Shown: piece after piece, positions 1-39,513 of the stretch | Numbering within the stretch: position 1 is the stretch's first letter | How the letters are laid out: each line of letters opens with the position of its first letter | Assembly: GCA_038870975.1 (NCBI GenBank) | Contig: JAVZJD010000002.1 | Span: 463,626 to 527,625, forward strand | DNA length: 64,000 nt | DNA from: Candidatus Bathyarchaeia archaeon | Lineage (GTDB): Archaea; Thermoproteota; CALKCG01; B24 | Reading direction: 5' to 3' | Notes under the pieces: generated by a model | Told to the model about the DNA's origin: nothing | Database searches by the model: none | What the model saw: only the letters and a program-made list of their open reading frames with translations | Translations under genes and position numbers: made by a program

Positions 1-420
1 TCATTTGACAAGGAAATATCTGATAGAATTGGGAAAATGATGTTTCTATTAAACGTTAGTCCTAAAGATACTTTGAGAGTTTTAGAGGACTATGGTAGTT
101 TGACAAGAGAACAACCTTTAATTTTAGGTATAGTTGATTATAAGGATTTCTTTAAACAAAATCAGGAATATGAGTCAGATGATGAAGAGATAGAACAATT
201 CTTTAATGAATATAGTTTTCCATTGACTATTATTGATGTGATAACGTTAATTAAAAATAATTGTCTTATTCTTAAACTTCATGACAGCAAATTATTCTGT
301 TTAAATTCTAAAAATGTTATAAGAAGATTTTCTGTTGGAGAATTAAGAGATGTGATAGCCTTTATCATACCCATGGAGTTCTATGATAATTCATACGGTT
401 TCATAGGTGCATTTTCATGA
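1..420 (+). CDS. 3' portion of an ORF cut by the window edge; unknown product, possibly a cas-operon protein
   Basis: Frame 1 is open from nt 1 to TGA at 418-420; ATGA start/stop overlap with the following HD-nuclease gene; no diagnostic motif seen. Confidence 0.3.
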   Translation, partial: SFDKEISDRIGKMMFLLNVSPKDTLRVLEDYGSLTREQPLILGIVDYKDFFKQNQEYESDDEEIEQFFNEYSFPLTIIDVITLIKNNCLILKLHDSKLFCLNSKNVIRRFSVGELRDVIAFIIPMEFYDNSYGFIGAFS

Positions 421-1133
421 AAATATATGCTTATAATGATGGAGATAGGGTTGAGACGTTAGAAAGACATATAACTGCTGGGTTACGGTATATGCAAGAA
501 ATATATTTGAAGAATATGTACCATAGACATATTTCCAAAAGGTTGAACGTAAGCGACGAAGATTCAATAAATTTATTAAAAGTTGCATACATGCTACATG
601 ACCTAGGTAAAGCATATGATCCATTTCAAACTAGAATAATAGAAGGGCATGGTGCTCCCGGGCATGAGGTTCTCTCATCATATGTAGCTGTAAAGCATTG
701 TAAAGTATTGGATGAAAATCTGACTCGCTCTGTTGCCTTATCCATACTTCTTCATCATCATGCAATGAGGACTCTAAGTGAAGCATTCATACAGTTCTGC
801 GAAGTAAAGCATTTTACGATTTCTATGGAAAAAGCGGAGTGGCTTAAGAGAAACGTATACGCTGATGTTTTAAATTTTCTACCTAATTCTTTAACATCGG
901 AACAGGTCGTGAATGTTCTTATGAGAGAATTGAATCGTCTTATTACGCCTAAATTATCAGAGGGGCTTGGGCAGATATATGCAACTGCATACCTTATACT
1001 ACACCCTTTAATGGTATGTGATAATCTCTCAGCATACACAGCGAAGTTTGGAGGGGATATTGTAAAAGTTGAAGACTTAGACCTCGGTAAGTTGAGGAAT
1101 TGGATCAGAGAGTTCTTATTAAGCGTTTTATAG
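417..1133 (+). CDS. cas3: HD-domain nuclease, Cas3 HD (Cas3'')-like
   Basis: 238 aa; LHDLGKAYDPFQ (HD-x-GK-x4-FQ signature of Cas3 HD), GHGAPGHE, LLHHHAM; immediately upstream of cas6. Confidence 0.6.
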   Translation: MKIYAYNDGDRVETLERHITAGLRYMQEIYLKNMYHRHISKRLNVSDEDSINLLKVAYMLHDLGKAYDPFQTRIIEGHGAPGHEVLSSYVAVKHCKVLDENLTRSVALSILLHHHAMRTLSEAFIQFCEVKHFTISMEKAEWLKRNVYADVLNFLPNSLTSEQVVNVLMRELNRLITPKLSEGLGQIYATAYLILHPLMVCDNLSAYTAKFGGDIVKVEDLDLGKLRNWIREFLLSVL

Positions 1134-1157
1134 TCTATATATTTGGTTGAATGCTTC

Positions 1158-2057
1158 ATGACTCAAATCGTAGTAAGGTTTTCTATAAATTTCACCTCAT
1201 TATCCAACATAATCATCCCTCCCTTCTCGTCTAAGGTTTCTAGAACTCTCTTCATAAGGATGTTCAATAGGGGTGTGGAAAAACCCGTGGAGTACTTTTC
1301 CAGTGAAAAGTTTGTCTTTAAGCCTTTGATTTTAACCCCGGTCTACTGGATGGATGGGAAGCGTTACCTGTTTAAAGTAGATGATTCTGAGGGTTTGTCT
1401 AAGCCTTTAATCCTCCGGGAGAATACTAAGTACTGCTTCTACGCCGTCTTGATCAGTAGAGGTGGCGGTGAATTGTCTTCGCTGATTCAAGACTTGGCTC
1501 CAAGCTTGAAGCTGGAGCTTTTCAACGGAGAGGTTCTAGTTGAGAATATAGGCGTAGAAGTCAAGTCTTTCGAGGGCTTCGGATTTAAAGACTCAGATGG
1601 ACTTATAAGAGTAGAGTTTAAAACGCCAGTCCTCATAAGCTTTCCAAAGTCATGGGTTAAACTCGAAAGGAAGACGCCTGCAAGGCATAGTCTATTCCCA
1701 ATACCGTCGTTTATGATACATGGTTTAGCTGAACACTGGAACAGCTACGCACCTGAGGAGTTGAAAATCCCAAACGTAGCTAAGCTGAGGATATACAGCA
1801 ACTACTCACTCGTTGAGCAAGACTACAGCGTTAAGCCTGTCACGGCGGTATACGATGAGAAGCGTAGACCTAGAGGATTCATAGGCTGGACCCTATACAA
1901 GCATAGGAGGCTGAATCGAAGCCTAGACGAAAGCCTACTAAAACTATTAGACTACGCAAACTACGTAGGCGTCGGAAGGTCTAGAAGCATAGGCTTCGGA
2001 GTCGTAGAAGTAAAACCATACAACTCGAAAACAAGCCAACCCGTAAAAAGACCGTGA
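1158..2057 (+). CDS. cas6: CRISPR RNA endoribonuclease Cas6
   Basis: C-terminal glycine-rich loop GVGRSRSIGFGVVEV and overall similarity to Pyrococcus-type Cas6; ORF track starts at TTG 1143, ATG at 1158 more likely. Confidence 0.75.
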   Translation: MTQIVVRFSINFTSLSNIIIPPFSSKVSRTLFIRMFNRGVEKPVEYFSSEKFVFKPLILTPVYWMDGKRYLFKVDDSEGLSKPLILRENTKYCFYAVLISRGGGELSSLIQDLAPSLKLELFNGEVLVENIGVEVKSFEGFGFKDSDGLIRVEFKTPVLISFPKSWVKLERKTPARHSLFPIPSFMIHGLAEHWNSYAPEELKIPNVAKLRIYSNYSLVEQDYSVKPVTAVYDEKRRPRGFIGWTLYKHRRLNRSLDESLLKLLDYANYVGVGRSRSIGFGVVEVKPYNSKTSQPVKRP

Positions 2058-15844: not shown

Positions 15845-15959
15845 GCGGGGGTTGCCGAGTCAGGACAAAGGCGCAGGACTTAAGATCTCAAAAGTAAAAG
15901 GGTCTAGATTGGAAATCCTGTGGCGTAGGCCTTCGTGGGTTCGAATCCCACCCCCCGCA
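15845..15959 (+). tRNA. tRNA-Leu (anticodon UAA) with ~30-nt intron in the anticodon loop
   Basis: Acceptor GCGGGGG/CCCCCGC plus discriminator A, T-arm GTGGGTTCGAATCCCAC, long variable arm, anticodon stem CAGGA/TCCTG separated by CTTAAG plus a ~30-nt insert. Confidence 0.7.
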
Positions 15960-32006: not shown

Positions 32007-32081
32007 GGGCCGGTAGTTCAGCCTGGTATGAATACCTGGCTCGCACCCGGGTGGTCGCGGGTTCAAATCCCGCCCGGTCCA
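32007..32081 (+). tRNA. tRNA-Ala (anticodon CGC)
   Basis: Cloverleaf: acceptor GGGCCGG/CCGGTCC with G3:U70 Ala identity pair, anticodon loop CTCGCAC, T-arm GCGGGTTCAAATCCCGC, followed by T5. Confidence 0.85.
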
Positions 32082-32100
32082 CTTAATTTTTAAGCGGACC
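32076..32100. repeat. hairpin/inverted repeat overlapping the tRNA-Ala 3' end (GGTCCACTTAA-TTT-TTAAGCGGACC)
   Basis: Arms 32076-32086 and 32090-32100 are reverse complements (10/11). Confidence 0.6.
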
Positions 32101-32611
32101 CTTAAACAAAGGAATATCATTTATCCTTTAATTGATGAGCGTTGAGGGCCAAGTCCACTTATTTGCTTGAGGATGAGAGATGCCCAGTGCTAATTCGATA
32201 ATCTGGTGGCTAAGTCTTATTTGATGGCCACTGTTTCGCGAATTGAAAACAGCATGATGTGAGCTTACATTTAGAAATTTAAAGCGATTACAGAGATATT
32301 AAGAAACAGTAAATCACATTAAAAAAGGGATGATTGCTTTCCGTTATAAGTTAATGAGCCTTAAAGCCCATATCATGCTCATCGATCCAGAAATTGAAGA
32401 GTCGACTAGCCACTGGGTCATAGTATAGAATTACCCATCCAATACTGCGCATTGCTCACAACGTTACAAATTTCCGTATAGACTCTATCAGTACATTTCT
32501 CTACTTTCAGCAATGCTTTGAGTAGAACCTTCAAGTCGCTTGGATCTTTTGACAAGTAGTTACTTCAAAAGCGACGCCATCGTAAAGCTTTCTTAATTAT
32601 TTAATTGCATA

Positions 32612-32628
32612 CCGCCTGGTCCGCTTAA
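32612..32628. repeat. direct repeat of the tRNA-Ala 3' end (15/17 match to 32070-32086); arm 32618-32628 is a perfect inverted repeat of 32090-32100
   Basis: CCGCCTGGTCCGCTTAA versus CCGCCCGGTCCACTTAA. Confidence 0.6.
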
Positions 32629-32779
32629 GTTAAAAGTGGAGGATTTTAACTTCAATGTAAGGAGTAGAAAATAAAAATTTACATGGAAAATATTGGAGAA
32701 AATATTATAAAATTAGAATTTCAAAGTTTTTCTATTTTGAAACGACTTTCCCATTCGTGTTCTATATAAATATAATAGA

Positions 32780-33544
32780 ATGATTATAAGTACGATGGCA
32801 TACAAATCCGAGATATCAGTAATAGGGCAGATAGAGACCGGTATTGAAGGCTTAGACCTCCTCCTTAAAGGCGGATTCATAAAAGGGACTACAGCACTCC
32901 TCATAGGACCCGTGGGTACTTTAAAGCCACATATTGGTTTTCAATTTCTTCATACAGGGTTAAAATCCGGAGAAAGGTGCTTCTGTCTAAGTACTACTCA
33001 GGATCTAAAAATTAGAAGCATGCAGTTTAAGATAAACTACGGCTGGGATTTAGAAGGCTATGTGAAAAATGGGAAGCTGGACTTCCTGTACTTTTCGCCG
33101 ATTGCAGTTCAGAGTTCAACCTACAAGTTTGTAGTGAGCGAATCAGGCGGGAGTGATATAATCAGGGAGGTCCTCCATAGGATAACGGGAGACGTCACTA
33201 GAATATTGATTCACACTCTATCTCAACTGTTTAAAATAATAGGCGATGAAAAGTTAGTGCTAAGCCTAGTTTACAGGTTGAAAGAACTAGTTAGGAAGAA
33301 CAACGCAGTAGCAATTTTCACAATCGACAGTGGCATTCAAAACAGTAGTGTAGAAGAAGAAGTTAAGTCGATATGTGACTATGTTCTAGAAACTAGGGAA
33401 TATCAAAGTAGAGTAGAGATACGACTGTTAAAATCACTGACAAGACACGATTTAGAGTGGCGAAGAGTATACACCATGGAGGACGGAGTATACGTTCAGC
33501 AAAACTTGAAGACCCCAGTCCACTACATTAACAATTTAGACTGA
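32780..33544 (+). CDS. KaiC/RecA-superfamily ATPase-like protein with degenerate Walker A and B motifs
   Basis: 254 aa; GLDLLLKGGFIKGTTALLIGPVGTLKP (Walker A lacks canonical GK[ST]) and ILIHTLSQL at the Walker B position (no Asp/Glu). Confidence 0.5.
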   Translation: MIISTMAYKSEISVIGQIETGIEGLDLLLKGGFIKGTTALLIGPVGTLKPHIGFQFLHTGLKSGERCFCLSTTQDLKIRSMQFKINYGWDLEGYVKNGKLDFLYFSPIAVQSSTYKFVVSESGGSDIIREVLHRITGDVTRILIHTLSQLFKIIGDEKLVLSLVYRLKELVRKNNAVAIFTIDSGIQNSSVEEEVKSICDYVLETREYQSRVEIRLLKSLTRHDLEWRRVYTMEDGVYVQQNLKTPVHYINNLD

Positions 33545-33635: not shown

Positions 33636-33869
33636 TTATCCATTGTTTACAGCCAGCCATTGTATACGTGACCATTGTGAGAAGATATTTACTATAGTAC
33701 CAGCCCCTCGTAGAACATGCTTCCAAATTAAAACTGTAGGCAATTCAACGGGTTGTTCGTGGAGTTTAACTTTTCCAATTTCAAAAACACTATGTGCTTT
33801 TCCAAACTTAACAAGTAATTCCATAATCACCAAACTCTATTTAGGAAAATGCGAAAAACTTTTATCGGA
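33636..33869 (-). pseudogene. decayed duplicate of the promoter and first ~55 codons of the mtrH-like gene
   Basis: 33703-33869 aligns to 39324-39492 at about 80% identity; encodes ...FEIGKVKLHEQPVELPTVLI then frameshifts relative to MtrH. Confidence 0.55.
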
Positions 33870-34126
33870 AGATTTCCATTCCTCTTCATTTGAATTCTAG
33901 AAGACCACCTTGCTTCCTCCATCGGTATTAATACAGTCGAGTATAAGCTCTACAAAGCGTGCAATGCTTAGACTCCTGCTATCCGCCTCAGCCTTAAGCT
34001 TTTAAAATTTCACATTTTTCGATTTTCAACACGCTTTTTTTAAGCTTTTATCTTTTTCAGCTCCTTTACCGTTTGATTTATGCATTCTTCGAATCCCCTC
34101 CCAGCCAAGTGGAAGCCGCCTAAAAC

Positions 34127-34192
34127 CGCGTAAACTGCTTCTACGCGTGTAAGTTGCTACGCGTAAAGTATTGTGTTTACTACGCCACGTGG
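34127..34192. repeat. three degenerate tandem units with a CGCGT core
   Basis: CGCGTAAACTGCTTCTA / CGCGTGTAAGTTGCTA / CGCGTAAAGTATTGTGTTTACTA in otherwise AT-rich non-coding DNA. Confidence 0.4.
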
Positions 34193-34441
34193 ACTACTTC
34201 CTAACATTGAACAATATGCTGTGAGCCGCGCCTCTGTCAAAGACGCGAACAAGCATTGAGAAGCATGTTCAGCAATAGGGTAGTGGAAAGCCTTCTCTAC
34301 TCAATCTCTGAAGTCTTTAACCTTCTTACTTGAAGAAGTTGATAAGAGGTCTATGGAATTATCCATGAGACTGATTATCTCTACTCTTTCAGCCTCTCTA
34401 AGCTTTAAAAACTGATTATTTCCTTTCATAGAAGATATTCT

Positions 34442-35041
34442 TTACAGTGTTCCCCTATAATAGATTGTTGCTGGACAGCCGACGCACTTCCCGTCAACGT
34501 ATCTTGCACATGGCTTACAGTCGACCTTACACGGTGCGATACTCCCCCTTCTACTGGCGAGACATTCTCTCACCAGGAGGAATTGTGAAAAGTATATATT
34601 GCTCACTGGGTAAAATTCCGACCTTCTCACACCAGCACCACTTCTGATAGAGCATTTCTCAATAGAGATGCTTTCAAGAGTATTCTGATCCTCAGCGACA
34701 ACAATGGCTATCAAATTATATCCGCCTAAAGTCTTAAATATTTGGACAACTCTCGGACAATATCTAAATCTGTCGAGAAGATTTTGCATCGCCTCAGCAC
34801 TCTCCATCTCAAGTAGAACTATTGCTGTGAAAAGTCTGAAATAGAAGGGGTTTATTAGCGCCAATACTCTAATAGCATCTTGCTCAATAAGCTTCTGAAG
34901 CCTCTTCCTAACCCCCATACTAGTATATTCTGTGACCTCTGCAAGCTCTCCTAATGTTGCTCTCCCATTCAATTGAAGCTTTGAAATAATCTTCCTATCG
35001 ATATCATCCAAGGCTTCCACCTCAGTTTTATTTCTAAACAT
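34442..35041 (-). CDS. Lrp/AsnC-family transcriptional regulator with C-terminal Cys-cluster extension
   Basis: 199 aa; HTH IDRKIISKLQLNGRATLGELAEVTEYTSMGVRKRLQKL, RAM-like middle, C-terminal CKVDCKPCARYVDGKCVGCP. Confidence 0.6.
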   Translation of the reverse strand: MFRNKTEVEALDDIDRKIISKLQLNGRATLGELAEVTEYTSMGVRKRLQKLIEQDAIRVLALINPFYFRLFTAIVLLEMESAEAMQNLLDRFRYCPRVVQIFKTLGGYNLIAIVVAEDQNTLESISIEKCSIRSGAGVRRSEFYPVSNIYFSQFLLVRECLASRRGSIAPCKVDCKPCARYVDGKCVGCPATIYYRGTL

Positions 35042-35044
35042 AAA

Positions 35045-35056
35045 CTATTTAAATAG
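35045..35056. promoter_or_regulatory. perfect 12-bp palindrome CTATTTAAATAG in the divergent promoter between the Lrp-like regulator and the mrp-led operon
   Basis: Self-complementary; located in the 50-bp intergenic region 35042-35091. Confidence 0.4.
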
Positions 35057-35091
35057 CTTATATATTAAACTTTTCAACAGGCAGTTGTGAT

Positions 35092-35937
35092 ATGAACAAC
35101 GAAGTAGAGACAGCAGATAAAGAGAGGACACAGATTGAAGAGCAGGAGCAAATATTAAAGTTTAGAATGGGGAAGATAAAACATAAAATTGCCGTCATAA
35201 GCGGTAAGGGTGGTGTTGGTAAGAGCATGGTTACTGTAAACCTTGCAGTTGCATTTGCAATACGTGGACACATCGATAAAGTTGGAATTCTAGATGCTGA
35301 TATTCACGGTCCAAGCATACCGAAAATGCTGGGGTTAAGCGGTCAAAGACTTCAAGCCGGGCCACCAGGAGTTTTCCCAGCTACCAGCCCCCTGGGGATT
35401 AAGGTTGTTTCAATGGGTTTTCTCCTACCAGATGAAAATACTCCCATCATCTGGCGTGGGCCACTAAAGATGACGGCTATACGACAATTCCTATCAGATG
35501 TTGTTTGGGGTGAACTCGACTTACTGCTGATAGATTTACCACCTGGAACTGGCGATGAGTCTCTGAGCGTAGCACAACTACTGCCAGAGATGGATGGGGT
35601 TGTAATCGTCACAATTCCATCTGAGGTTTCTCAGATAGTTGTTAAAAAGGCAGTTAATTTCGCTAAAAAGCTTGGCCTGCCAGTTATAGGTGTAATTGAA
35701 AACATGAGCGGCTTTATATGTCCAAACTGCGGAGCGAAGATTGACATATTCCGGTCTGGCGGTGGAAAGAAAATAGCTGAGGAAATGGATGTGCCATTCC
35801 TTGGAAGCATACCGGTAGACCAAGAGATATGTGAATCCTCCGATAAAGGCATACCATTCATAGCTGAGCATAAGGATTCACCAGCATCAAAAGCCTTCAT
35901 GGAGATTGTCCAGAGAATCGAGCAAATACTAGAGTAG
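35092..35937 (+). CDS. Mrp/ApbC/NBP35-family iron-sulfur cluster carrier ATPase
   Basis: 281 aa; deviant Walker [15 protein letters not shown] and CPNCG cluster-ligand motif. Confidence 0.85.
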
Positions 35938-36060
35938 AGCGAGGTTTGCGAAATCCTAGGTGGAGGTGTAGTCTAAGATGGAGATGTTAGTTGAAAAATA
36001 TATGAAAATTGGAAACTTACGTGTAAAAATCAAGTTTATAGTTATAAGGGAGGTGTAAGA

Positions 36061-36435
36061 TTGGTGGAGAGAATAATCATACCTACTGAAGATGGAAGTG
36101 GGCTTAATGCCAGATTATCTGAACATTTCGGAAGAGCACCATACTTCATCGTAGTTGATCTAGATGAGGATAATAACATTTTGAACGTTCAAGCAGTGCT
36201 AAACACGGGTGAGCACTTCGGTGGAATAGGTCGACCAGCCGATAACATACTGCGGCTTAGACCTAACGCTGTAATCACCTATGGTATGGGTCCACGAGCA
36301 CTAAGTATATTCCAGAACGCTAGAGTTGCTGTGCTGAAGGCTAATGCGAATACTCTCAGGGATGTTATTGAAGCATATAAGCAGGGTGTTCTTAAGGAAC
36401 TCACGGAAGGCTGTCGCTACACCCGCCACAGATAA
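36061..36435 (+). CDS. NifX/NafY-like dinitrogenase FeMo-cofactor-binding-domain protein (Nitro_FeMo-Co family)
   Basis: 124 aa; HFGRAPYFIVVDL and ITYGMGPRA pattern. Confidence 0.7.
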   Translation: MVERIIIPTEDGSGLNARLSEHFGRAPYFIVVDLDEDNNILNVQAVLNTGEHFGGIGRPADNILRLRPNAVITYGMGPRALSIFQNARVAVLKANANTLRDVIEAYKQGVLKELTEGCRYTRHR

Positions 36436-36504
36436 ACAATTACAGGTTAACAGCGGTATAATGTAAACTCTTTAGTCAAGAAGAATGGACGTGAAGCCTC
36501 CTCT

Positions 36505-36798
36505 ATGATATCATTAATTGCTAGTGGTAAAGGCGGAACTGGGAAGACCTCACTCGTAGCTAACATAACCATTTCAGTAAGAGATGACATTCAGATACTG
36601 GATTGCGATGTCGAAGAGTCAAACATACATTTACTTCTACATCCTAAAATAGTCAGCGAGAAAACAGTTTACAATACAATCACCTTTGATCTAAATGTTA
36701 CTGAGGCGATAGTTAATGGAAAAACGATCATAGAATATTCTCCGGAAACTGATGCCTTAAAGGAAATAGAAAGAGTATGGGAAGGATTCTCAGCATAA
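36505..36798 (+). CDS. MinD/CooC-like P-loop ATPase reduced to a 97-aa stub
   Basis: ASGKGGTGKTS P-loop and DCDVEESN motif, but the central region present in full-length family members is missing. Confidence 0.5.
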   Translation: MISLIASGKGGTGKTSLVANITISVRDDIQILDCDVEESNIHLLLHPKIVSEKTVYNTITFDLNVTEAIVNGKTIIEYSPETDALKEIERVWEGFSA

Positions 36799-36840
36799 TT
36801 GGACTTCCTAGAAATAAAAGTTGCTGAGGGGAAACAGTAA

Positions 36841-37530
36841 ATGGTGTCACTAGTATTTGGTCCTGTCCCATCTAGACGTTTAGGGAGAAGTCTAGGGATA
36901 AATAACGTCCCATATAAGACGTGCACATACTCATGCGTCTACTGTCAACTGGGGAAGACAACAAACATGTTTGTTAAAAGACGATGCTTCTATAAACCAG
37001 AGGATATCTTAATAGCGGTTGAAAACAAAGTTAAGGAAATCCTTTCAAAGGGTGAGAGGATAGATTATTTAACTTTTGCCCCAGATGGCGAGCCAACTCT
37101 GGATATTAATATTGGAAGAGGAATATCGCTCGTAAAGCAGATAGACCTCCCAGTAGCAGTAATAACCAATGCTTCCCTACTCTGGAATCGTAGGGTGAGA
37201 GAGAGTCTGCTGGAAGCTGACTTTGTCTCATTAAAGGTTGATGCAGTCAGCCAAGACTTATGGCGGGTGTTGAATAGACCACATAAAAGCCTACAGTTGA
37301 ATGATGTTTTAGAAGGCGTAAGAAAGTTTACAGAAACATTTGAGGGGACAATCATAACCGAAACAATGCTTATCGACGGCATAAAATACGACGAGGAGTT
37401 TAAGCGAATAGCAGACTTTCTTGGAAAACTAGACAAATTAAATACTGCTTATATTGCAGTACCCACAAGACCACCTGCAGAAAAGTGGGTTAAGCCAGCT
37501 AGAAAAGAAGCCTTAAATGAGGCATTTTAA
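36841..37530 (+). CDS. radical SAM enzyme, small (229 aa), family unassigned
   Basis: CTYSCVYC (Cx3Cx2C) cluster motif; N-terminal GPVPSRRLGRSLGIN. Confidence 0.7.
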   Translation: MVSLVFGPVPSRRLGRSLGINNVPYKTCTYSCVYCQLGKTTNMFVKRRCFYKPEDILIAVENKVKEILSKGERIDYLTFAPDGEPTLDINIGRGISLVKQIDLPVAVITNASLLWNRRVRESLLEADFVSLKVDAVSQDLWRVLNRPHKSLQLNDVLEGVRKFTETFEGTIITETMLIDGIKYDEEFKRIADFLGKLDKLNTAYIAVPTRPPAEKWVKPARKEALNEAF

Positions 37531-37569
37531 GCCTTCTCCAAGATACTTGGAAGCTATAGGGTAAAATTC

Positions 37570-37788
37570 TTGGTAGAGTATGAAAAGAATGATTTCACTT
37601 TAACGGGAAAAATTGAAGATGACATACTCAGCATAGCTGCCGTACATCCAATACGTAAAGAAGTGATAGTAAGTCTTCTAAAAAGGGTTGGAGCAGACTG
37701 GCAAATCTTAGAAAAACTTCTTCAAGAAGGTAAACTGATAAAACTCAAATATGGTGGAAATGAATACTATAGGAGCAAACTTAGGTAA
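37570..37788 (+). CDS. hypothetical protein (72 aa), last gene of the cassette
   Basis: ORF only; no motif recognised. Confidence 0.25.
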   Translation: MVEYEKNDFTLTGKIEDDILSIAAVHPIRKEVIVSLLKRVGADWQILEKLLQEGKLIKLKYGGNEYYRSKLR

Positions 37789-37942
37789 GAAAACTTGAAA
37801 GACTTTACACTATATATCTGTTAATAGAGTAGAAGTGTCCACTCTTTTAATTTTCCTGTTTCTAATGTTGTTACACCGATAAGTACCTTATCTATGACGT
37901 CTGAGACAAGTACTGGCACTATTTCACTTCTCCCCTCCAGCT

Positions 37943-38171
37943 CTATTCATATTCTTGGTCTCTCAAGATTGATCTTCCAGCACCACTCTCCGCAATGGAT
38001 CTACTAGTCGCCTTAAGATCGAGAAACGTAGCTATCTTGCGTGGTATAATTGTAAGCGTAGCGCTAGTATCAACTAAGGCGTTAACCTCAACGAGTCTAA
38101 CGCAACTTTCATCAGCTATTTCAGCCGGGGCCCAACATGACCCAAAAATAATCCCTAAACTTAAACCTCAT
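37943..38171 (-). pseudogene. retropepsin-like aspartyl protease gene fragment, frameshifted
   Basis: Minus-strand frame encodes ...CVRLVEVNALVDTSATLTIIPRKIATFLDLK (DTG-like active-site block) without a start codon; an ATG at 38171 opens a 17-codon ORF in another frame. Confidence 0.35.
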
Positions 38172-38517
38172 GGTGTTTAAATTCTTCCTTAGGCAATTTT
38201 CAAGTTTCCAGGATTATTGTAAAGGTGTTCTCTGCTATTTTAGTCCCATTCCTCTTTGCCAATATAATGTATAAGGAATGTATATAGCTATGCTCCGTTT
38301 AGAGGATATTTTAAATGCTCAATCTATGGTTTCGCTGAACACTCTCATTTTCCTCCTTAACCCATTCTGGAACATTAACGCTCACCGCAGTCATTAACCA
38401 TCAACATGAGTTTCGATACAAATTCAATAAAACCCCTAGTGGTAAACCATCGTTTAAGACGCCTAAAAATATTGACTAGCTTCTCCCAGAAGCTAAGTAA
38501 AATTTCCCTATCCAAAT

Positions 38518-39435
38518 CTAAATCATCCTATACAACGGATGATTTTTAACTAGCGGCTTTATCCCTATGCTTCTTGCATGGTAAGCGACTATTGCATCGA
38601 TCATTGCACAGATGGGAAAGATATGCTTAGCTTTTGCAATAGAGCCGTAAATAATAAAGTTTGCTCCCATGGTTTGAGCGAGAGCTAAAGCCCCACCTCT
38701 ACACGCTATCTTCACGTTTTCTTCTAAACCTTTAGTTTTACTCCATTTCCCCACAGCGCCTATCGGCGCTGTTCCAGTCGGCATGCCAAATTCTTCCTTA
38801 GCTAGATAGATGCCTCGAGCCGCAAAGCCTATGCTTGGAACGTCTAAAACCAGCATGAAGATTAAGGGCTTCTCTATGCCAGCTTTTAAAGCTCTAGCAA
38901 CCAACCCCTCTTCTTCAGCAGATCCTTTAAGAATTTGGATCATACCAGCTGGATATGGATTTCTAGGATTAAAGGCCTGGATAATAGCGGCCTTTAGCTT
39001 TACCCCTCTAATGGCTTCGACCTCCTCTCTACTTAACGTATAGTTTATGGAGTTATAGACAGCTCTCTCCTGAAGCCCCACTTCTCTCACATAATTTGCC
39101 GCTCCAATTCTTATGGACGCGTTAGATCCATTTATTAGGAATGGGCTGTCAGTAACGTTTGATACGAATTCAATGTACTTTATGAGAGCTATAGAGTTTT
39201 CTCCAACCACGTCAAGCATACAAGGAACACCTGTTTTCTCAGACAGCTCTTCTTGAACAAGTATCAGTCTTTCAGCCTCTCTTCTATTGAAGAGCCCTGA
39301 AGACTTATCTTGAACTATCCTATGCCCCTCGTGGAATATACTTCCAATTAAAACTGTAGGCAATTCTCCAGGTTGCCCGCCGACTTTAACTTTTCCAATT
39401 TCAAAAATACTCTGCGTTTTTTCAAACTTAAACAA
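38518..39435 (-). CDS. mtrH: MtrH-family methyltransferase (tetrahydromethanopterin S-methyltransferase subunit H-like)
   Basis: 305 aa; N-terminus (TTG start) FKFEKTQSIFEIGKVKVGGQPGELPTVLIGSIF and overall colinearity with MtrH. Confidence 0.75.
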   Translation of the reverse strand: MFKFEKTQSIFEIGKVKVGGQPGELPTVLIGSIFHEGHRIVQDKSSGLFNRREAERLILVQEELSEKTGVPCMLDVVGENSIALIKYIEFVSNVTDSPFLINGSNASIRIGAANYVREVGLQERAVYNSINYTLSREEVEAIRGVKLKAAIIQAFNPRNPYPAGMIQILKGSAEEEGLVARALKAGIEKPLIFMLVLDVPSIGFAARGIYLAKEEFGMPTGTAPIGAVGKWSKTKGLEENVKIACRGGALALAQTMGANFIIYGSIAKAKHIFPICAMIDAIVAYHARSIGIKPLVKNHPLYRMI

Positions 39436-39513
39436 GCAATTCCACCATCAACTAGACTCTATTTAGGAGAGCTACTAAAAACTTTTATCGGAGGAGTATG
39501 AAGCTGATATCTA

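Follow-up and report, generated by a model that had tools for sequence, protein, structure and literature searches.

A repeated tRNA-Ala tail beside a decayed superoxide dismutase locus in a Bathyarchaeia genome

The tRNA-Ala gene, its conserved neighbour and the DNA between them

The window, that is, the whole 64-kb stretch of DNA analysed here, contains an intact tRNA-Ala(CGC) gene at 32007-32081 on the plus strand (ARAGORN; Rfam RF00005, 58.6 bits). Its G3:U70 pair can be read from the sequence, and CCA is not encoded. The conserved right-hand neighbour, at 32795-33544 on the plus strand, encodes a KaiC/RAD55-like ATPase (Pfam PF06745, E = 1.4e-20). The exact 249-aa product is on record, and homologs are encoded in the relatives L064 (92% identity) and L065 (78%). 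The KaiC-like gene is preceded by a conserved block at 32644-32794 (plus strand), which is recognized by homology to L064 (91%) and L065 and includes a TATA-like promoter. The 16.7 kb around the locus match contig JAVZKS010000004.1 of GCA_038884135.1 exactly. The relatives of the window are Bathyarchaeia MAGs from hot springs.

The DNA that follows the tRNA gene has no intact ORF, as an earlier note made from the sequence had said; the longest ORF is 45 aa. The segment 32101-32365 is non-coding and about 72% identical to the L064 DNA between tRNA-Ala and the stop codon of a superoxide dismutase (SOD) gene. The blastn alignment pairs window positions 32055-32379 with L064 1-308, and about 300 nt are homologous from 32083. 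It is followed at 32366-32476, on the minus strand, by a fragment of a Fe/Mn superoxide dismutase gene comprising codons 110-146 of 203 (tblastn, blastn). The fragment is 68% identical to the L064 SOD over 37 aa (tblastn E = 3.5e-12 against the whole window), and its DNA is 85% identical to L064 508-602 and 88% identical to the MAG L066. It has an in-frame stop, and the C-terminal 57 codons and the entire N-terminal half are deleted. By these sequence features it is a Fe/Mn superoxide dismutase pseudogene.

The next segment, Y (32477-32608, 132 nt), has no homolog at the DNA or protein level in L064, L065, L066, the window, the other loci, phages or plasmids. Y and the adjacent copy of the tRNA tail described below form a 181-nt block (32463-32643) that replaces the N-terminal half of the SOD gene and the orf97 DNA of L064, and homolog searches with this block as a whole detected nothing.

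The interval between the repeats had been thought to be a remnant or a small non-autonomous element. The latter suggestion fails. No further copy of the interior exists in the window or in 660 kb of related loci; it shares homology with the nearest relative's SOD locus, and 37 SOD codons survive in it. Judged by this homology, the interval represents a superoxide dismutase locus in decay and is neither a MITE nor any other small mobile element. Searches of the interval against phages and plasmids (blastn) gave nothing relevant, and those against the window and the loci gathered before L064 (blastn, tblastx) gave nothing. No RNA family was found in it by Rfam at a permissive threshold, and no terminator-like site.

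The direct repeat and its palindromes

The 17-mer CCGCCCGGTCCACTTAA at the end of the tRNA gene (32070-32086) recurs, as had been noticed, with 2 mismatches as CCGCCTGGTCCGCTTAA at 32612-32628. Allowing up to 3 mismatches, the 64 kb contain no third match, and the expected number is 0.05. In a local alignment the direct repeat is 32 nt long and ungapped, with 25 of 32 positions identical. Copy 1, the candidate attL, is ATCCCGCCCGGTCCACTTAATTTTTAAGCGGA (32067-32098, plus strand), and copy 2, the candidate attR, is ATACCGCCTGGTCCGCTTAAGTTAAAAGTGGA (32609-32640, plus strand). The repeat begins with the final 2 nt of the T-loop and comprises the last 15 nt of tRNA-Ala and 17 nt of its trailer. Copy 2 lies downstream of the tRNA gene in the same orientation and matches 12 of the 15 positions of the tRNA 3' end and 13 of the 17 trailer positions, so that the divergence between the copies is 22%. 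The alignment score exceeds those of all 2955 random 160-nt windows and of 1000/1000 shuffles. With up to 3 mismatches, the tRNA 15-mer was found, in 664 kb comprising the window and related loci, only in true tRNA-Ala genes, in copy 2 and at one chance site. The trailer half of copy 2 is closer to the window's own derived trailer (13/17) than to the trailer of the L064/L002 type; when copy 2 is compared with the L064 and L065 trailers, the similarity ends at most 3 nt past the tRNA end.

Both copies are imperfect palindromes. In copy 1 the palindrome GGTCCACTTAA-TTT-TTAAGCGGACC (32076-32100) has 10 of 11 pairs and folds at -6.1 kcal/mol (z = -4.0). It is specific to the window, as the L064 trailer has no such fold (z = +0.3). 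The T5 run inside it (32087-32091) is presumably the terminator of the tRNA gene. In copy 2 the palindrome is TCCGCTT-AAGTTAA-AAGTGGA, with a weak hairpin TCCGCTT/AAGTGGA at -3.3 kcal/mol (z = -1.8).

The 11-mer TTAAGCGGACC (32090-32100) is indeed the exact reverse complement of 32618-32628. However, this inverted repeat is not independent evidence, because both copies are imperfect palindromes and the left arm of copy 2 therefore complements the right arm of copy 1 automatically. Its perfection hangs on a single pair of positions, which is A/C in copy 1 and G/T in copy 2, and we estimate the chance of this at about 0.1. As a general caution, a "perfect terminal inverted repeat" can arise as a by-product of a directly repeated palindromic site.

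When the right halves of the two copies are swapped at the shared CTTAA, both products are perfect palindromes, one of the form 11+3+11 (-11.9 kcal/mol, z = -8.2) and one of the form 7+7+7 (-5.1 kcal/mol). Better palindromes after the swap would be expected if the present copies were attL and attR that had arisen as hybrids of an attP and an attB which were palindromic. There are 5 occurrences of the motif GTCCRCTTA in 64 kb, where 0.89 would be expected, and four of them are within these 550 bp. A third exact GTCCACTTA motif, at 32153-32161, lies outside both repeat copies.

The spacer and its surroundings in related genomes

The closest relative found is L064, a Logan contig that begins within tRNA-Ala's 3' end. 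The contig of the second relative, L065, likewise begins in the tRNA-Ala tail. Both were reached via homologs of the KaiC-like gene. Relatives of the P0012 lineage, anchored on the MscS gene that adjoins the tRNA gene, have no synteny here and give no information on the locus. In every relative with the MscS side visible, the tRNA-Ala adjoining that gene is present in a single copy.

Homology to L064 resumes at 32644, 3 nt past copy 2, with 91% identity through the KaiC-like gene, and the alignment of L065 to the window likewise starts at about 32644. Thus the tRNA end and copy 2 are the edges of a variable spacer. This spacer is filled differently in all three genomes with both flanks visible. 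In the window it takes up the 562 bp that separate tRNA-Ala from the block ahead of the KaiC-like gene. In L064 it is about 1.5 kb and contains the same trailer, an intact gene for a 203-aa Fe/Mn SOD and then a 97-aa ORF (orf97). In L065 it consists of unrelated DNA, about 1.2 kb long, in which there is a 149-aa ORF. The sequence changes directly downstream of tRNA-Ala in L002, L005, L006 and L052 too. The L064 fill matches two pieces that lie 7 kb apart in a chromosomal oxidative-stress cluster (rubrerythrin/SOD/ferritin) of the Bathyarchaeia MAG L066, and this match suggests a once larger insert trimmed by deletions.

The SOD of L064 (333-944; proteins P0131-P0136) shares 89-92% identity with SODs from other Bathyarchaeia and from a Nezhaarchaeales MAG. 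The SOD gene of L066 (8001-8612) is situated within a rubrerythrin/ferritin/flavodiiron cluster. These observations hint that this SOD has spread laterally between archaea of hot springs.

The tRNA-KaiC spacer of L065 contains four tandem units of about CCATACAAA (843-904). The same 62 nt, 80% identical, recur in another Bathyarchaeia lineage (L067 5818-5877 and sister loci), where they are located 130-190 nt downstream of the KaiC-like gene. In the outgroup lineage, with a KaiC-like protein 59% identical, a tRNA-Met(CAT) gene (L067 4799-4874) is located 126 nt upstream of the KaiC-like gene. A tRNA-Met gene beside the KaiC-like gene was likewise found in the sister loci L068, L073, L074 and L076, and contigs of this lineage break at that tRNA gene as well. 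The pairing of a tRNA gene with the KaiC-like gene may be old. A proposed similarity of the right flank of copy 2 to the outgroup tRNA-Met trailer (AGTGGARGATTTT..AACT) was rejected, as it does not rise above shuffles.

In many independent assemblies contigs end at or inside this tRNA-Ala gene (L001, L003, L028, L051, L052, L053, L064 and L065). This fits strain-level heterogeneity downstream of the tRNA gene; alternatively, the tRNA sequence could simply be common to co-assembled species. In L004 1-520 (= L054; MAG QZM_A2_bin_24) other DNA stands in place of tRNA-Ala upstream of the MscS gene, and its translation resembles, by eye only, the N-terminus of TnpB of the IS200/IS605 type. Small ORFs on the opposite strand abut the tRNA-Ala 3' end in L005 (1111-1392, plus strand) and L006 (1-231), and the former runs antisense through the 3' half of the tRNA gene. 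They are possibly of the ribbon-helix-helix type and could be parts of integrated elements; the contigs are very short.

The earlier note had extended its interpretation to the whole of 31.9-39.5 kb as an integration hotspot. Beyond the KaiC-like gene this is wrong, as the relatives differ there by deletions; Pfam searches of 31.9-39.5 kb yielded no mobile-element genes. Two direct copies of the MtrH 5' end with its promoter, 85% identical and 5.6 kb apart, are located at 33703-33895 and 39324-39495. L064 has a single copy (2590-2800), which is a clean hybrid, like copy 1 of this repeat on the left and like copy 2 on the right. It lacks the intervening 5.6 kb (Lrp/AsnC, Mrp/NBP35, FeMo-co-like, CooC fragment, radical SAM, orf72 and MtrH), and its KaiC-like gene is directly followed by VIT1. 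The hybrid copy therefore points to loss of 33873-39495 from L064 by homologous recombination between the repeats, which is the simplest account of these sequences; the alternative is a Campbell-type gain in the window. L065 keeps only the ParA/Mrp gene of the region beyond the KaiC-like gene, and L002 keeps fragments. On these comparisons the region 33.7-39.5 kb varies among relatives by deletion, not integration, and is better described as a variable, decaying region anchored at a tRNA than as an integration hotspot. The decay of the spacer was possibly begun by an old insertion at the tRNA gene.

The region also contains a 97-aa ORF (36505-36798, plus strand) that corresponds to no more than the N-terminal P-loop region of an ATPase of the CooC/MinD/ParA type and is probably a truncated pseudogene. 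Elsewhere in the window, a 115-nt Rfam tRNA match at 15845-15959 (plus strand, 44.6 bits), which ARAGORN does not call, is probably an intron-containing archaeal tRNA. The Cas3-HD-like and Cas6 genes at the start of the window (417-2057, plus strand) suggest the edge of a CRISPR-Cas locus; the GC content dips in 1-1000, to 0.33 in the first kb.

Possible origins of the repeat

The repeat of the tRNA end was originally interpreted as the footprint of an integrase. The geometry, the conservation boundary and the variable DNA downstream agree with this, whereas an integrase, further att-like copies and an empty site were not found. The footprint interpretation is plausible but unproven, and we infer integrase-mediated recombination, not another kind of duplication, as the origin of the repeat.

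The steps would be as follows. DNA with its own copy of the tRNA tail would have recombined site-specifically into tRNA-Ala, at some position between T-loop and trailer. Copy 1 would then be the regenerated tRNA end (attL), and copy 2 (32609-32640) would be the original tRNA-Ala 3' end and trailer, displaced by the insertion. The junction of the attP circle would have been GGTCCGCTTAATTTTTAAGCGGACC. The insert would once have been far larger and would have carried oxidative-stress genes including the SOD. The integrase and almost all cargo would have been deleted later, with the SOD 3' flank, 37 codons, the 132-nt right end and attR left behind. That the repeat is the attL/attR scar of an old, nearly erased island, with copy 2 as the displaced tRNA 3' end, is our leading but tentative explanation, with somewhat less than an even chance of being correct.

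Several observations speak for an old integration. Firstly, a 32-nt repeat of the tRNA tail, highly non-random, is found downstream in the same orientation, and 3 nt separate its end from the resumption of homology to L064 and L065 (32644). Secondly, the same flanks enclose three different fills, further relatives change directly past the tRNA gene, and the two distant L066 pieces in the L064 fill are what is expected of a larger, trimmed insert. Thirdly, the start of the repeat is near that of the T-loop class of tRNA att sites (PMC1762012), the half-swap at CTTAA improves both palindromes, and GTCCRCTTA is enriched around the locus, with one site outside the repeats. Finally, the tRNA-like end in copy 2 is 171 nt upstream of the KaiC-like gene, and the outgroup tRNA is 126 nt upstream of its own.

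On the other hand, no integrase or fragment of one was found in the interval or in the window ORFs that were screened with Pfam or read as translations. Six-frame pieces of the interval had no Pfam match; the sensitivity of this search is low, as the true 34-aa SOD piece also scored nothing. Apart from the two repeat copies, there are no att-like copies in the 64-kb window or in the 664 kb of window and related loci, and neither a free attP nor a second occupied copy came to light. The empty site, tRNA-Ala joined to CTTAAGTTAAAAGTGGAGGA and the KaiC block, was not found in the relatives, of which few are close and most have contigs that break at the tRNA gene. In IMG/VR there were 0 matches both to a degenerate attL/attR/attP/attB pattern and to the tRNA-Ala 3' 22-mer. 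A looser att pattern gave 20 matches in JGI metagenomes, all due to chance and lacking tRNA context. Integrase-like frames seen by eye in L065 (about 1000-1275, minus strand) were rejected, as they had no sequence match in Pfam, PHROGs or PDB.

Other features also fit an old integration poorly. L064 has the left part of the insert but neither copy 2 nor Y, which calls for an additional deletion with its endpoint exactly at the edge of the repeat. In its trailer half, copy 2 is like the window's derived trailer, and a duplication within the window's lineage fits this at least equally well. The cargo (SOD, ferritin-like flank) is of the chromosomal rather than the element type. There are just 5 identical bases (CTTAA) between mismatches at the proposed crossover, and the argument from the palindrome swap hangs on a single position pair.

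A regenerated tRNA gene at one end and a displaced 3' fragment at the other mark the ends of tRNA islands (the Islander principle; Hudson, Lau & Williams 2015, PMC4383910). As in the islands of tyrosine integrases identified in this way, the locus has an intact tRNA gene at one boundary, a displaced piece of that tRNA on the expected side and in the expected orientation, and content between them that varies among relatives, here with chromosomal-type cargo (SOD). It differs in that no integrase gene was found, so that it would fail the integrase filter of Islander, and in that only about 0.5 kb of pseudogene remnant is present, the fragment is 22% diverged and no empty site is known. The att site of Ms6 at tRNA-Ala exemplifies the T-loop class; its 26-bp core includes the whole 7-nt T-loop, and an exact match is obligatory (PMC1762012). 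In both cases an identity block runs from the T-loop to the tRNA 3' end, whereas here the identity starts at the last 2 bases of the loop and continues 17 nt past the tRNA, the host is archaeal and no recombinase was identified. Archaeal integration of the SSV type targets a tRNA gene, produces direct repeats and splits the integrase gene. The host domain, the tRNA target and the direct repeats agree with the present locus; in contrast, neither repeat copy borders on a coding fragment of Int(N) or Int(C).

Filler, or templated, DNA arises at deletion junctions, and genes decay by deletion. One possibility is that a single repair event in the window's lineage, with no integrase ever involved, deleted the 5' half of the SOD gene, orf97 and the next spacer and patched the junction with about 180 nt, the final 32 nt copied from the nearby tRNA end and trailer and Y from another template. 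Indeed, copy 2 and Y are missing from L064 and replace L064 603-1545 as a single block; the trailer half of copy 2 follows the window's own derived trailer at 13 of 17 positions; and no integrase is found in a region that is demonstrably decaying by deletions. Like filler DNA, copy 2 is a short duplicate of sequence from close by, and it marks a junction at which a relative is longer by about 940 bp; several other deletions are seen in the neighbourhood. However, the copy stands exactly at a boundary common to two relatives and has the geometry of a tRNA att site, so that the deletion would have to end, on its right side, just where the block conserved in both L064 and L065 begins. Moreover, the 22% divergence means that the event is old, the search for a source of Y was negative, and a copied piece starting at the T-loop edge and the extra GTCCACTTA motif are left unexplained. 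We regard such a repair as unlikely, but as the foremost competitor of the old integration.

Another possibility is that a second, tandem tRNA-Ala gene once stood upstream of the KaiC-like gene, its body was deleted, and copy 2 with the trailer is its last piece. The outgroup tRNA-Met, 126 nt upstream of its KaiC-like gene, is in line with this, as is a D-arm-like 14-mer in L064, TAGTTCAGCCTAGT (13/14), about 50 nt from the same junction. However, no tRNA-like signal extends beyond 15 nt in the window (Rfam in E-value mode) or exists in L064, the similarity of 13/17 in the trailer demands that the trailer was duplicated together with the gene, and the relatives with the MscS side visible all have the single tRNA-Ala there. 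This origin seems improbable. A candidate relic of a second tRNA gene in L064, combining the D-arm-like 14-mer with a promoter-like ATTTATCAGTC, was rejected, as it has no covariance-model support.

A MITE-like non-autonomous transposon bounded by the 11-bp terminal inverted repeats TTAAGCGGACC...GGTCCGCTTAA would account for perfect repeats 517 bp apart around DNA with no ORF, but it is contradicted by the single-copy interior collinear with the L064 SOD locus, by the left "terminus" conserved in L064, where the right one is absent, by the flanks AATTT and GTTAA, which form no target-site duplication, and by the direct repeat of a palindromic site, which accounts for the inverted repeat; we consider it highly improbable. 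The same low probability is assigned to an inverton, that is, an invertible DNA switch between the tRNA and KaiC-like genes. Bacterial invertons have about this size and short perfect inverted repeats, and the segment of about 517 bp resembles them, but there is no recombinase gene among the window ORFs examined, the promoter of the KaiC-like gene is outside the segment, to the right of 32644, the orientation is the same in two assemblies, and the interior is a pseudogene remnant. The probability left by these five accounts (old integration, repair with filler DNA, second tRNA gene, transposon and inverton) belongs to other readings.

Finally, the palindromic sites and GTCCACTTA might be live recognition sites of a recombinase encoded elsewhere that repeatedly swaps or deletes cassettes between the tRNA and KaiC-like genes of hot-spring Bathyarchaeia. 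We consider this rather far-fetched. If true, it would account for the three fills with the same boundaries and for the metagenome contigs that break at the tRNA gene.

The locus is an ordinary scar of genome decay and of little consequence except for annotation. It draws attention to a SOD pseudogene and to a variable site beside tRNA-Ala in an uncultured Bathyarchaeia lineage, and it illustrates that a repeat of a tRNA tail can outlast the deletion of nearly everything between the copies. Integrative elements of Bathyarchaeia are poorly known so far. If the repeat is indeed the scar of an old integration, the GGTCC(A/G)CTTAA palindromes would be the candidate attB/attP core and could be used to find such elements.
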